64,000 nucleotides of DNA, from NCBI GenBank assembly GCA_963746845.1, contig CAVVCZ010000005.1, positions 448,001 to 512,000 on the forward strand, in the 5' to 3' direction. The DNA comes from an uncultured Chloroflexia bacterium. Its GTDB lineage: Bacteria > Chloroflexota > Limnocylindria > Limnocylindrales > CSP1-4. Positions 58,926 to 62,192 of the stretch are shown here, one piece after another. Below the pieces are notes generated by a model. The model had not been told where the DNA came from. It did not search any database and saw only the letters and a list, made by a program, of their open reading frames with translations. The position numbers and the translations under genes were made by a program. Each line of letters begins with the position of its first letter. Position 1 is the stretch's first letter.

Positions 58926-60419
58926 ATGACCACCGAGCAGCAGGCCGCCGCATCCGCGACGGCCGAAGGGCCCCAGATCGCGAGGATGATGATCGGCGGG
59001 GAGTCCGTGGACGCAGCGGACGGGCAGACCTTCGAGGTCGTCAACCCCGCCAACGGGGCGACGATCGCGACCGCGCCGCTCGGCGGGCGTGAGGACGTCG
59101 ACCGGGCCGTGGCGGCGGCGCAGAAGGCGTTCGAGGATCGCAAGGGCTGGGCGAGCTGGGCGGCCGGCAAGCGGGGCCGGTCCCTGTCGAAGCTCGCCGA
59201 TCTGATCAAGAAGAACAGCGAGGAGCTTGCCTGGCTCGAGAGCCGCAACGTGGGCAAGCCGATCGGTGGCGCCCGCGGCGAGGTCATCGGCGCGAGCCTC
59301 GTCTTCGACTATTACGCGGGGGCGGCGAACAAGGTCTTCGGCCAGACGATCCCGGTGTCGAAGCCGGGTCTCGACCTCACGCTCCGCGAGCCGATCGGCG
59401 TCGTCGGGCTGATCGTGCCGTGGAACTTCCCGATCCTCATGGCCTCGTGGAAGGTCGCGCCGGCCCTCGCAGCCGGGAACACCGCGATCCTCAAGCCCGC
59501 GTCGTACTCGCCGCTGACCGCGATCCGGCTCGGCGAGCTGGCGCTGGAGGCGGGCATCCCGGCAGGGGTCCTGAACGTCGTGACCGGCCCGGGCGGGACG
59601 GCCGGCGCCTCGATCGCCGCGCACCCGGGGATCGGCAAGGTCGCCTTCACGGGCGAGACGACGACCGGCCAGGAGATCATGCGGCTGGCCTCCGGCAACG
59701 TGAAGAAGATCAGCCTCGAGCTCGGTGGCAAGAGCCCGAACATCGTCTTCGCCGATGCGGACCTCGAGAAGTTCGCCCGCGAGTCGCCCTACTCGGTCTT
59801 CGACAACACCGGCCAGGACTGCTGCGCCCGGAGCCGGATCCTCGTCGAGCGATCCGTCCACGAGCGGGTCGTCGAGCTGTTCGCCGAGGCGACGCGGAAC
59901 GTGAAGGTCGGCGATCCGGCCGACGACGCGACGGAGGTCGGGACGCTCGTCAGCTTCAGGCAGCGCGACCGCGTGAAGGACTACATCGAGATCGGCCAGG
60001 CCGAGGGCGCGACCATCGTCGTCGGCGGGGTCGAGCCGGATGATCCGGCGCTGGCCGGCGGTGCGTACCTGATGCCGACGGTGTTCGACGGGGTCTCGAA
60101 CGACATGCGGATCGCCAAGGAGGAGATCTTCGGGCCGGTGGTCTCGGTCATCCCGTTCGACACCGAGGAGGAGGCGCTGCGGCTCGCGAACGCGACCCCG
60201 TACGGCCTGTCCGGCTCGATCTGGAGCCGCGACATCGGCAAGGCCCTGCGGGCGGCGAAGGCGCTCCAGTCCGGCGTGATCTCGGTCAACTCGAACAGCT
60301 CCGTCCACACCGAGGCGCCGTTCGGCGGCTACAAGATGTCGGGCATCGGGCGCGAGCTCGGGATGTCCGCGCTGGATCTCTACACCGAGACGAAGAACGT
60401 CTTCATCGACCTCTCCTGA
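58926..60419 (+). CDS. Aldehyde dehydrogenase
   Basis: PWNFP, FTGET, LELGGKSP, GQDCCAR, EEIFGPV, PFGGYKMSGIGRE. Confidence 0.95.
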   Translation: MTTEQQAAASATAEGPQIARMMIGGESVDAADGQTFEVVNPANGATIATAPLGGREDVDRAVAAAQKAFEDRKGWASWAAGKRGRSLSKLADLIKKNSEELAWLESRNVGKPIGGARGEVIGASLVFDYYAGAANKVFGQTIPVSKPGLDLTLREPIGVVGLIVPWNFPILMASWKVAPALAAGNTAILKPASYSPLTAIRLGELALEAGIPAGVLNVVTGPGGTAGASIAAHPGIGKVAFTGETTTGQEIMRLASGNVKKISLELGGKSPNIVFADADLEKFARESPYSVFDNTGQDCCARSRILVERSVHERVVELFAEATRNVKVGDPADDATEVGTLVSFRQRDRVKDYIEIGQAEGATIVVGGVEPDDPALAGGAYLMPTVFDGVSNDMRIAKEEIFGPVVSVIPFDTEEEALRLANATPYGLSGSIWSRDIGKALRAAKALQSGVISVNSNSSVHTEAPFGGYKMSGIGRELGMSALDLYTETKNVFIDLS

Positions 60420-60446
60420 CGGGTTCGCCGCCCCCGTCCACGCCGC

Positions 60447-60598
60447 CGACGCGCCGACCGCGTCAAACGACTTACGACACCCCGTGAGGACGCTCGACAA
60501 CCCGGCAGATTGCCCATCCGGGGTCGTTGGCCGCATTGGGCGCGTCGCTTGACGCTCGGTTGGCGGTCCAGGCGCCGTTTGACGCGCTGAGCGCGTCG
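60447..60598. repeat. 152-bp palindromic element, copy A (downstream of nuclease gene)
   Basis: Ends CGACGCGC-N4-CGCGTCAAACG and CGTTTGACGCG-N4-GCGCGTCG are inverted repeats; colinear with copy B at +870. Confidence 0.85.
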
Positions 60599-60609
60599 CC
60601 ACGGCCTCG

Positions 60610-61260
60610 TCAGAGCAGAACGACGGCGCTGTCTCCCGGTTCGAGACCCTGACCGAGCGCACCGAGCACGCGCCGGGCATGGCCGCGCATCCCGACGAAC
60701 GCGGCCGGCGCCGCCGCGAGGGCTCGGCGGTTTCGGCGGGTGTTCGCGACGACGAGGATCACCCGAGCCATGCCGCTGTCACGCTTCTTGAGGGCGATCC
60801 GACGCTCGAGCGCCTGCAGATCGTCAAGGACGGTCTCGGCCTCCACGGCGATCGCCCAACCGTCCCCGCTCACGACCGCGTCCCACGCGCGAAGGTCGCC
60901 GTCAAGCGGCAACGGGACCTCGGTACGCCACCGGAGTCGCGCTCCGACGCGCGGGCGAAACCGCGCGAGCAACCGCTGCTGCCCGACGTCCCGGATCGGA
61001 TCGCCCGACGGGAACACGCGGAGCCGGAGCTCTTGACCGACGGTGGCCGCCATCGCCGCGAGCAGTCGGAGGTCCGGGTTGAGGGTTTCGCCGGATACGA
61101 CCCGAGCCGCGGTCGAGCCGTCGACGTGACACGCCGCACCGATCGTGTCGAAGCTCAACCCGGCATTGCGACGACCCGAGCCGATGTCCAGGAGGACACG
61201 GTGGAGGTCCTCCTCGATCCGACGAACCGCCCGATCGACGGGCCGCGAACGAGTTCCCAT
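60610..61260 (-). CDS. XRE-like HTH fused to a Vsr/DUF559-like restriction-endonuclease fold
   Basis: RRNAGLS..TIG....V..ST..RV..GE HTH; EVPL...RAWD.......AVEAET acidic motif; CATGAT -10 box 6 nt before ATG. Confidence 0.65.
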   Translation of the reverse strand: MGTRSRPVDRAVRRIEEDLHRVLLDIGSGRRNAGLSFDTIGAACHVDGSTAARVVSGETLNPDLRLLAAMAATVGQELRLRVFPSGDPIRDVGQQRLLARFRPRVGARLRWRTEVPLPLDGDLRAWDAVVSGDGWAIAVEAETVLDDLQALERRIALKKRDSGMARVILVVANTRRNRRALAAAPAAFVGMRGHARRVLGALGQGLEPGDSAVVLL

Positions 61261-61316
61261 GATCCGATCATGCCGGTCCTGCCTTCGCTGGCGGTTCGCT
61301 CGTCATGACCTGCCAA

Positions 61317-61468
61317 CCACGCGCTGGCTGCGTCAAACGACCGGCCAACGGCTGGTGAGGCGCCAGAAGACTCGACAGATCACTCCTCCCGGGTCATTTG
61401 CTGCATCGAACGCGTCCGATGACGCCTTGTTGGCGGACCGAGCGTCGGTTGACGCGCTCTGCGCGTCG
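61317..61468. repeat. 152-bp palindromic element, copy B (upstream of nuclease gene)
   Basis: Ends CCACGCGC-N4-TGCGTCAAACG and CGGTTGACGCG-N4-GCGCGTCG; direct diverged copy of 60447-60598. Confidence 0.85.
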
Positions 61469-61520
61469 GGCGCGCGGAACGGCGGCTGGCGCGCGCGAGT
61501 CGGCGGCCGGACGACCCCGG

Positions 61521-62192
61521 TTACTCGTCCCAGTGGCGGTCGGCGGGGTGGATGTCCGGGCGTCGGCGATGGAGCCAGTCGCGGATCGCCCAGTACGAGG
61601 TCTTGAACGCGATCCCGGGCCACGGGATCGCCTCGGGGGAGAACGCCTGGATCTCGAGCGCCTCGGGGTTGAGACGCGGCGTGCCGCCGACGACACGCGC
61701 TTCGAACGCCAACACCACGACGGCCGCCTCCAGCCGCGAGTACAGCCCGACGATCTCGCCCGGCTCGACGACCAGACCGGTCTCCTCGAGCGTCTCGCGG
61801 ACCGCGGCCTCACCGACGGTCTCGTCGACCTCGAGGAAGCCGCCGGGCTGCGCCCACCACCCGCGGCCCGGATCGATCCCGCGACGAAGCAGGACGACCT
61901 CGCCGGCATCGGTCACCGGGATCGTCGTGACGACGAGCCGCGGATTGACGTAGGCGATGTGCCCGCACGCCGGGCAGCCGAGCCGGTCGCGGTCCTCGCC
62001 CTCGATCGGGCCGAAGGTCAGCTCGGTGCCGCAGCGCGAGCAGTAGTTGAGCATCGCGGCCATCCACGACGGGACGCCGCCGCCGGACGGGATGCCCGTC
62101 GAGCGAGCGTCCGGGCCGCGACCGAAGACGTCGAGCAGCTCGCCCGCCTCGTCGGGCATGCCACCGAGCGACGAGTTGCCGGATCCGATCAT
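61521..62192 (-). CDS. NUDIX hydrolase with N-terminal zinc ribbon
   Basis: YCSRCG...CPACG..AYVNP, Nudix box GGFLEVDETVGEAAVRETLEETG. Confidence 0.92.
   Translation of the reverse strand: MIGSGNSSLGGMPDEAGELLDVFGRGPDARSTGIPSGGGVPSWMAAMLNYCSRCGTELTFGPIEGEDRDRLGCPACGHIAYVNPRLVVTTIPVTDAGEVVLLRRGIDPGRGWWAQPGGFLEVDETVGEAAVRETLEETGLVVEPGEIVGLYSRLEAAVVVLAFEARVVGGTPRLNPEALEIQAFSPEAIPWPGIAFKTSYWAIRDWLHRRRPDIHPADRHWDE

Follow-up and report, generated by a model that had tools for sequence, protein, structure and literature searches.

A gene for a 216-residue protein, bracketed on both sides by elements built of short palindromic boxes, is the subject of this analysis. It lies in a 64,000-nucleotide stretch of DNA (the window; positions 448,001 to 512,000 of contig CAVVCZ010000005.1, forward strand) from an uncultured Chloroflexia bacterium. 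The protein joins an XRE-type helix-turn-helix (HTH) to a C-terminal domain modelled in the PD-(D/E)XK nuclease fold, and elements with the same type of box are dispersed through the source genome. Gene and boxes may together form a system resembling repetitive extragenic palindromic (REP) sequences or bacterial interspersed mosaic elements (BIMEs) with their REP-associated tyrosine transposases (RAYTs), but built on a non-HUH nuclease. This reading, in which the protein would bind and propagate the boxes, is held as a nearly even judgement that tilts slightly towards doubt. The computational evidence consists of the fold, a predicted dimer, the conservation of the boxes, their association with the gene, lineage-specific pairs of recognition helix and box, swings in box copy number, and insertion or deletion differences between related genomes. 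The source genome (3.56 Mb, 92% complete) is designated G000; other G numbers refer to congeneric genomes and L numbers to individual loci.

The bracketed gene and its elements

The features of the locus are as follows, with the two neighbouring genes at the end.

60447..60598, minus strand: downstream three-box element, oriented like the upstream element and starting 11 nt past the stop codon
60447..60471, plus strand: box M3 of the downstream element, CGACGCGCCGACCGCGTCAAACGAC
60523..60547, minus strand: box M2 of the downstream element, degenerate
60576..60598, minus strand: box M1 of the downstream element, perfect palindrome GACGCGC-TGA-GCGCGTC (60581-60597)
60610..61260, minus strand: gene for 216 residues by open reading frame (ORF) call, XRE-type HTH fused to a predicted PD-(D/E)XK-fold domain
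60613..60999, minus strand: predicted C-terminal PD-(D/E)XK-fold domain, residues 88-216, with conserved D122, D127, E140, E142, K158 and D161
61033..61173, minus strand: HTH domain core, residues 30-76, from HTH_31, PDB profile and structure matches
61317..61468, minus strand (the sense strand of the gene): upstream three-box element, direct repeat of 60447-60598, stopping 56 nt before the ATG
61319..61341, plus strand: box M3 of the upstream element, opposite in orientation to M1, ACGCGCTGGCTGCGTCAAACGAC
61393..61417, minus strand: box M2 of the upstream element, internal and degenerate, oriented like M1
61446..61468, minus strand: box M1 of the upstream element, perfect palindrome GACGCGC-AGA-GCGCGTC (61451-61467) with an AACCGAC tail behind it
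58926..60419, plus strand: aldehyde dehydrogenase (ALDH) gene, PF00171, E 4.7e-172, left border of the variable spacer
61521..62174, minus strand: NUDIX hydrolase gene with an N-terminal zinc ribbon, PF00293 and PF14803 (Zn_ribbon_Nudix), right border of the variable spacer

A sequence-only reading of the window had described two direct elements of equal length 870 bp apart, and these coordinates are confirmed by a repeat search of the window (60491-60598 and 61361-61468, 72% identity, spacing 870) as well as by an ungapped count over the whole elements, in which 104 of 152 bases are identical between 60447-60598 and 61317-61468. Against every other 152-nt window on both strands of the 64 kb, the left element gave a mean count of 44.0 with a standard deviation of 5.9, and the next-best window reached 80. 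A manual count from the same reading, 94 of 140 for 60461-60600 against 61331-61470, was reproduced exactly, and the terminal inverted repeats of about 23 bp that it noted are also present: the arms of the left element (60447-60469 and 60576-60598) are complementary at 20 of 23 bases (87%), and those of the right element at about 19 of 25 as counted by eye. The end motifs of the upstream element were recovered by nhmmer with E values of 1.7e-4 and 3.5e-3. The ORF call and the Pfam matches of the neighbours agree with the description of a lone 216-residue gene between convergent ALDH and NUDIX genes.

The proposed 152-bp unit, in contrast, did not hold as such, as the conserved part is a box of about 23 bp repeated three times per element, and the interior has diverged like the flanks. 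Each box consists of a 17-bp palindrome, GACGC-N7-GCGTC, and an AAACGAC tail, with the consensus [G/C]A[C/T]GCGC-N5-GCGTCAAACGAC. In the aligned copies M1 and M2 have the same orientation and M3 is inverted.

Dispersed elements in the source genome

A hidden Markov model (HMM) of the 31-nt end motif detected 12 strong and four weak full-length elements (143-164 bp) in G000, together with two partial ones; with the 12-mer counts given below, this establishes the dispersed repeat family that had been surmised from the window. Six full copies were also recovered by a simple pattern search, and the 10-mer GCGTCAAACG has 24 copies in the 3.56-Mb genome, often as plus/minus pairs about 125 nt apart. 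The 18 elements are intergenic by the ORF call, with a doubtful call overlapping three of them, and they lie mostly directly 3′ of a gene, often between convergent genes, with no consistent orientation to a start codon. Mean pairwise identity is 0.80 for M1, 0.78 for M3, 0.55 for M2, 0.42 for the interior and 0.38 for unrelated flanks; element length is nevertheless constrained to within about 20 bp.

Three close pairs of elements occur in G000, and in two of them the closest relative of each member is its own partner. The window pair is in direct orientation and 71% identical in the comparison of the element family. An inverted pair at C4:198556-198706 and C4:200006-200159 (L003), 77% identical, brackets a single AlkZ-like DNA glycosylase gene, whose PF06224 match covers profile positions 1-209 of 329, a truncation or frameshift being possible. 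The members of the third pair, 5.3 kb apart and 69% identical, are closer (73% and 72%) to the element at C4:1326038.

Exact copies of the 12-mer GCGTCAAACGAC number 17 in G000 and zero to four in each of 40 congeners, the reversed-pattern control giving none. When up to one mismatch is allowed, G000 has 49 occurrences and the others 4-28, much of the latter being coding-like noise. The exact count overstates the specificity to G000 because orthologous elements in G020 carry one-base variants of the box; judged by these sequences, the box family is shared with congeners, though it attains its greatest size and uniformity in G000.

A second, unrelated dispersed repeat was encountered in the same genome. 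It is about 128 nt long, forms a long imperfect palindrome, has no Rfam match and gave 28 blastn matches at 76-91% identity (examples at C7:95388-95514, C5:137690-137816 and C4:97918-98045). G020 has a copy at L147:5703-5831 where G000 (C4:1140817-1140852) has none, an insertion difference between the two genomes.

Architecture of the protein

Among Pfam families reported at E up to 1, the sole match of the protein is HTH_31 (E 0.0026, 18.5 bits), which lies below the 27-bit cut-off. Homologues pass this cut-off (31.6 bits at L144), and many entries of the family carry PF13560 or PF01381. In the PDB, a profile of 31 homologues matched XRE-type HTH proteins alone (HigA at E 1.8e-4), and in the full-length model, with a predicted local distance difference test (pLDDT) score of 83.8, the N-terminal domain matches the XRE protein 3f6w at a VIA Z of 10.1, its structural neighbours including C.AhdI, C.BclI, C.Esp1396I, HipB and HigA. 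Pfam, PDB profile and structure thus concur with the XRE-like HTH that had been placed at the N-terminus from sequence. Modelled as a homodimer, the protein scores 0.75 against 0.00 for the best control, with at least 92% of contacts agreeing between runs and a partner pLDDT of at least 86; the mark for this score is reached by 20 of 30 solved homodimers and by one of 23 monomers. The predicted interface comprises residues 7-91, i.e., the HTH domain. The protein is therefore predicted to be a dimeric XRE-type HTH protein, the dimer score supporting self-binding.

The C-terminal domain modelled alone (pLDDT 90.8, predicted template modelling score 0.86) shows the order alpha-beta-beta-beta-alpha-beta. 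Its VIA matches are led by AF1548 (Z 8.7, root-mean-square deviation 3.4 over 101 aligned residues), XisH (8.4), NucS (7.8) and Card1 (7.7), with Can2, Bax1, several type II enzymes, Hjc and Vsr further down, and most of the 50 best rows are restriction-endonuclease-fold proteins as judged from their entry titles. Foldseek agrees weakly, with a best E of 5e-3 and McrC, an R2 endonuclease domain, OkrAI and BamHI among its matches. The model thus assigns the domain to the PD-(D/E)XK nuclease fold, a nuclease fold of some kind having been suggested in the sequence-only reading, and the claim is limited to the fold and extends to no named family because the Z values are middling (at most 8.7). The proposed kinship with Vsr and DUF559 fared less well, there being no DUF559 or other nuclease Pfam match and Vsr (1cw0) standing at rank 29 with a Z of 5.8, a likeness at the level of fold only. 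The same core is shared with AF1548, XisH, NucS, Card1/Can2 and BamHI/OkrAI, but searches of Pfam, NCBIfam, PDB profiles and the ESM Atlas gave no sequence-level match of the domain to any named nuclease family, the ESM Atlas returning only clusters of hypothetical Chloroflexota proteins. NCBIfam, PADLOC and PHROGs likewise gave no match for the whole 216-residue protein.

In the model, D127 stands at the start of strand 2 and E140-x-E142 at the end of strand 3. None of these three acidic residues varies among 31 close homologues, and in 29 more distant ones each is conserved to 90% or more. The position of the motif lysine is occupied by glutamate, and an invariant lysine, K158, is found in the next helix. 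BamHI likewise has a glutamate where the classic motif has a lysine. Under the reading favoured here, the domain would be an active nuclease.

The gene family and its boxes

The family comprises 1228 proteins at E ≤1e-3 among the candidates of one search and 1028 clusters at 50% identity in another, and by record titles it belongs almost entirely to Chloroflexota of the Limnocylindria type. It is carried by 39 of the 41 congeneric genomes sampled, at 0-7 copies each when fragments and copies with stops or frameshifts are included; G000 has three. A distant fourth relative in G000 (C1:126839-127375, profile E 3.4e-6, positions 28-188) hints at a wider superfamily.

Across 80 homologue loci (458,733 nt), 19 of 21 weak matches to the G000 end motif fall within 410 nt of the gene, a zone that makes up about 14% of the sequence. 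Inverted repeats and recurring palindromes are also enriched upstream of the homologues. The best inverted repeat with 22-nt arms scores at least 18 in 17 of 78 upstream and six of 78 downstream regions, compared with 14 of 781 control windows and four of 234 shuffled upstream sequences, and a perfect palindrome with a 6-bp stem recurs at least twice within 330 nt in 12 of 78 upstream regions, one of 78 downstream regions, six of 781 controls and one of 234 shuffled upstream sequences. As coding sequence makes up most of the control windows, the shuffles are the fairer null. When upstream and downstream flanks were compared by BLAST at 78 loci, clear repeats between them appeared in a minority only, most strongly at L104 and L110. 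The double bracket is therefore not universal; what the loci have in common is the upstream element. At L031 and L046, where the protein is 65% identical, the element-gene-element layout is the same as in G000, and at L035 and L040 the upstream element again has a fixed orientation. Iterative nhmmer over genome and loci did not widen the element family, finding one or two locus matches per round.

The arms at the homologue loci are small palindromes with an AAAC- or AAG-type tail, whose half-sites differ between loci; within a box type the half-sites are conserved and the centre is variable. The box type goes with the recognition helix as follows.

Helix SHQQLxRFERG: box GGTCCG-N5-CGGACC, at 5 loci and 5 more
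Helix IDHARIWRFERG: box ATGTTGC...
Helix MSRWxVARI: box GAGCA..TGCTC
Helix SHxxVGRxERG: box GAACGC..GCGTTC
Helix DGSTAARVVSG (the window gene): box GACGC-N7-GCGTC

The other two G000 paralogues adjoin palindromes of their own, GGAAC-N7-GTTCC and TGCAY-N3-RTGCA by direct reading. Such a correspondence, drawn from sequences, is what binding of the boxes would predict and not a proof of it. The flanking elements that the sequence-only reading proposed to look for beside homologues are thus found in the form of matching palindromes enriched upstream of the gene, with a box type that follows the helix.

Copy-number swings among congeners

The box GGTCCGNNNNNCGGACCA was counted on each strand of 41 congeneric genomes, whose completeness ranges from 58 to 93%. 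An unpublished genome, G014, supplies one row in this comparison and in those of the ALDH-NUDIX spacer, the family copies, the 12-mer with one mismatch and the orthologues, and no conclusion rests on it. Counts extend from zero in ten genomes, G000 among them, to 105/108, with controls at 0-2. The five richest genomes, G013 (105/108), G051 (79/76), G008 (51/53), G009 (37/40) and G049 (24/22), are exactly those with an orthologue of the SHQQL type at 87% identity or more, and in each of them this gene has three-box elements of its own type on both sides, in the layout seen in the window. G053, with 33/36 boxes, carries a frameshifted copy of the gene at 69-71%, and G041 and G040, with about 14 boxes, carry relatives at 71% and 62%. 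Paralogues with another helix carry other boxes, as in G016, G039, G019 and the second copy in G013.

The boxes of G013 are nearly uniform, their 5-nt centre included, and occur at about 35-40 loci against three gene copies. They form arrays of three at a 72-nt period and of four to five at 51 or 61 nt, for example at L169 (C1:102978-103150) and L190 (C2:63170-63432), which have 51- and 61-nt periods with four and five boxes, respectively. The spacers of these arrays have only end and centre motifs in common, the 61-nt array consists of near-identical tandem units, and close relatives have arrays of differing length at orthologous sites.

Some members of the family seem to be damaged, showing truncation of the match, a shift of frame or a stop within the frame: G013 C16:206301-206801 (L160), G053 C2:77186-77846, G042 C4:1014468-1014806 and G054 C332:11835-12482. 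The cognate gene of G013, the box-richest genome, is among them. These could be true pseudogenes or errors in assembling genomes from metagenomes.

Turnover at the ALDH-NUDIX locus

Congeners were compared for the spacer that separates the stop codons of ALDH and NUDIX, and filled, solo-element and empty states were found, so that the empty sites looked for since the sequence-only reading do exist.

G005, G008, G009 and G013: spacer of 13-24 nt, no content
G011: spacer of 87 nt, no content
G006: spacer of 216 nt, one solo element with another box type
G010, G017, G019 and G022: spacer of 352-475 nt, small ORF only
G018, G015 and G020: spacer of 1364-1543 nt, small ORF, HTH gene and upstream element
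G000: spacer of 1101 nt, element, gene and element

The HTH gene is 71% identical in nucleotides between G020 and G000, compared with 91% for ALDH and 86% for NUDIX, and the boxes of G018 (GAGCAGC..GCTC) are unrelated to those of G000. Two other HTH cassettes of G020 (1054 and 921 nt) face spacers of 78 and 80 nt in G000, and a solo element shared by G000 and G020 is missing from G011, where the spacer is 12 nt.

Two further observations concern these sites. The small unannotated ORF after ALDH (about 110-150 residues, with a conserved '...VNRFTIDD...') is present at L131-L138 (G020, G015, G018, G010, G022, G017, G019) and absent from G000, where the downstream element is in its place. At the site of the G000 solo element C4:362934-363087, G020 (L150:240-460, C1:183320-183540) has two adjacent elements of different box types, one being GGAACG..CGTTCC, and the G006 element there has yet another box (..GAGCACAAGCGAC).

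A proposed coupled gene-repeat system and its alternatives

Under the favoured reading, the HTH dimer would recognise the palindromic boxes, which would be the protein's own binding sites. Through the upstream element the protein would control its own promoter, and it would act in trans on the approximately 16 solo elements of the same box type in the genome. The nuclease domain may then cut or nick at or beside the bound boxes, and subsequent repair or recombination could duplicate boxes into regularly spaced arrays, spread them to new intergenic sites, and lead to gain or loss of the cassette. Propagation of the repeats by the protein would be the outcome of these steps.

A number of observations weigh against this reading. 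The weakest step is that from binding to propagation, because G000 holds no faithful whole-element copies, two of its three paralogues have no dispersed population, and there is no insertion signature. Specifically, interiors as diverged as flanks, together with pairwise identities of 55-77% among the G000 elements, mean that no whole element was copied and pasted recently in G000; the flanks of paralogues 1 and 2 have no dispersed copies in that genome; and neither a target-site duplication nor a sharp boundary was found at the six flanked copies or in the filled/empty pairs. That partners are nearest relatives is as compatible with local duplication or gene conversion as it is with transposition. 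Since gene and boxes are linked, shared ancestry alone would yield the helix-box correspondence, the correlations of box with helix and with gene copy number are confounded by linkage and shared ancestry, and the five box-rich genomes may be one clade and hence a single event. G042 and G048 have a gene of the SHQQL type but only four and one boxes per strand, and the cognate gene of the box-richest genome, G013, matches residues 1-167 only. Nuclease activity is not assured, because the catalytic motif reads D...ExE and not D...ExK. Finally, palindromic operators before an XRE gene are expected under ordinary autoregulation as well.

This last point leads to the reading of the protein as a plain autoregulated XRE repressor or activator, whose nuclease-like domain would serve only for oligomerisation or ligand sensing and whose solo elements would be regulon sites or decaying copies. 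Binding to palindromes within their own promoters is common among XRE regulators, and the position of the element 56 nt upstream of the start in a fixed orientation, as at L035 and L040, a dimer predicted through the HTH domain, half-sites more constant than their centre, and boxes found only beside the gene for G000 paralogues 1 and 2 are all in keeping with it. A purely structural domain would, however, hardly be expected to conserve the acidic triad D127/E140/E142 across the family, nor would regulon sites be expected to lie mostly just 3′ of genes, many of them between convergent genes, without consistent orientation to a start codon. Box numbers from zero to about 105 in a single genus, array periods of 51, 61 and 72 nt, and a gene that is gained, lost and broken also speak against it, and the reading is considered unlikely, though with a real share of the probability. 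A selfish addiction or defence module, in which a restriction- or toxin-like nuclease is fused to a controller-type HTH that switches off its own promoter and the solo elements are scars of gene deletion through recombination of the two flanking direct repeats, comparable to solo long terminal repeats, would account for the direct-repeat bracket here, at L031 and L046 and in five further genomes, and for the solo element of G006 at the same ALDH-NUDIX locus. It would also suit the fast evolution of the gene relative to its neighbours (71% against 91% and 86% in G020), the several copies per genome with fragments and frameshifts, the presence or absence of the cassette between close genomes, and the restriction enzymes and McrC among the fold neighbours. 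Yet PADLOC and PHROGs gave no match, the cassette contains no methyltransferase or antitoxin gene, the 35-40 or so box loci of G013 against three genes would need many past cassette insertions, and scars do not explain arrays of four to five boxes or identical tandem units; such a module is accordingly regarded as distinctly improbable.

That the elements act as RNA (structures in untranslated regions, terminators or small RNAs), with a link to the gene at the RNA level or by coincidence, had been considered in the sequence-only reading. The elements do fold well, with a mean z of -3.7 against shuffles (-2.8 and -2.1 for the two window elements), many lie just downstream of genes, and the consensus fold contains some G-U pairs. 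The two strands, however, fold equally well (mean z -3.71 sense and -3.63 antisense, sense being the more stable in seven of ten), which singles out neither as the transcribed one. Rfam gives no match at the gathering level, no terminator-like T-run is present, the boxes alone are conserved and not the stems between them, and the box type tracks a DNA-binding helix, all of which leaves an RNA role highly improbable. A scan for promoters and terminators at the locus found none. Contigs from two RNA runs reach no further than the conserved ends of ALDH and NUDIX and are uninformative on expression, the gene is covered in part and at low depth by two DNA runs, and no sequencing run contained more than 0.20 of the sampled words.

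Several other candidates were rejected. The Rfam match to mir-3960 in the region 60300-61700 is a chance one, lying inside a coding region with E 0.75 and 24.5 bits against a gathering score of 73. The attC core-site consensus has RYYYAAC ... GTTRRRY outermost; here each arm carries its AAAC/GTTT motif on the inside and its outer portion is conserved too, which is not the layout of an integron cassette (an integrase was not searched for). A CRISPR-like array is contradicted by spacers that share end and centre motifs, by arrays of identical tandem units and by the 35-40 or so mini-arrays per genome, cas adjacency not having been checked. A miniature inverted-repeat transposable element (MITE) does not agree with an interior identity of 0.42 against 0.38 in the flanks or with the lack of a target-site duplication; a matching insertion sequence was not searched for.

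Comparison with known systems and significance

REP repeats are high-copy palindromes of 20-40 bp with a GTAG (or CGTC) head. The boxes described here are palindromes of 17-19 bp with a 6-8-nt tail, that of G000 ending in CGTC and having no GTAG; G000 has 16-18 of the elements, and G013 about 105 boxes. A RAYT gene stands between copies of a short palindromic repeat that is also dispersed in intergenic DNA (PMC3337134, PMC3116915, PMC5581495, PMC3733652). A gene flanked in this manner is found in G000, in G008, G009, G013, G049 and G051, and at L031 and L046. Further points in common with REP/BIME-RAYT systems are one or few gene copies per genome with matching repeats scattered in the intergenic DNA of that genome, a location mostly 3′ of genes and between converging ones, an arrangement in inverted pairs and in arrays of regular spacing, and a repeat type that is lineage-specific with widely variable copy number. 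Unlike a RAYT, the protein is an XRE HTH joined to a predicted PD-(D/E)XK fold and not an HUH/Y1 transposase, several paralogues occur per genome, each with its own box type, and the gene is gained and lost and not strictly vertical. Unlike REPs, only the boxes are conserved and not the whole element, and copies are counted in tens and not hundreds. The HUH/Y1 domain PF01797 was found neither in the protein nor in G000, which is 92% complete, whereas the same search was positive in six control genomes; with this domain absent from the gene and not found in the genome, the system is an analogue of RAYT loci and not a member of them. The REP/RAYT analogy with a different nuclease class, drawn at the outset from the window, is therefore apt.

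Among REPs, the CGTC-tagged ones come closest. They are described as palindromic and intergenic, with a stem ending in CGTC and mostly in head-to-head dimers, and are stated to 'apparently lack a dedicated transposase' (PMC3733652); the same source gives stems of 8-9 bp starting with A/T pairs, loops of 4-5 nt, CCA tails and an occurrence mainly in Alphaproteobacteria (PMC3733652). The G000 box also starts with GACG and ends with CGTC, a likeness by description, but differs in its stem, in its AAACGAC tail and in a layout of three boxes. With Correia and ERIC elements and MITEs, the elements share a length of about 150 bp, terminal inverted repeats, intergenic position and hairpin potential; they differ in an interior that is not conserved, in having three boxes or an array, and in being linked to a protein gene of matching specificity. 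To our knowledge, Correia and ERIC are small palindromic intergenic repeats without a known mobiliser. The C proteins of restriction-modification systems, HipB and HigA are small dimeric XRE HTH proteins that bind palindromic operators before their own gene. The HTH considered here is, unlike these, fused to a domain of predicted nuclease fold, has no methyltransferase or toxin partner gene, and has operator-like boxes that are dispersed.

No account of an HTH-PD-(D/E)XK gene linked with palindromic repeats came up in a limited literature search. As far as we know, the origin, spread and persistence of short bacterial palindromic repeats are understood for one partnership only, that of REP/REPIN with the HUH-type RAYT. 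Other families of such repeats are not known to have a partner, as PMC3733652 notes for the CGTC REPs. The present system offers a different protein architecture with the same genomic signature, namely a bracketed gene, a matching dispersed population, lineage-specific pairs, and swings from zero to about 100 copies, and it provides many natural variants of helix and box specificity that are directly testable in vitro. The lineage is abundant and uncultured and lives in soil and freshwater, and a limited literature search found almost no mobile-element biology for it. Should the protein prove to be no more than a regulator, the system would still be a record of operator arrays spreading in an unusual manner. 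The broader proposition, that HTH-PD-(D/E)XK proteins make up a second class of domesticated nuclease, a non-HUH one, which maintains and spreads REP/BIME-like box arrays, with each paralogue co-evolving with its own box type, is a speculative one on the unlikely side. Were it true, the 51-, 61- and 72-nt arrays would have been written by a protein complex that measures distance along DNA, and repeat families without a RAYT, such as the CGTC-tagged REPs, could have mobilisers of a like kind.

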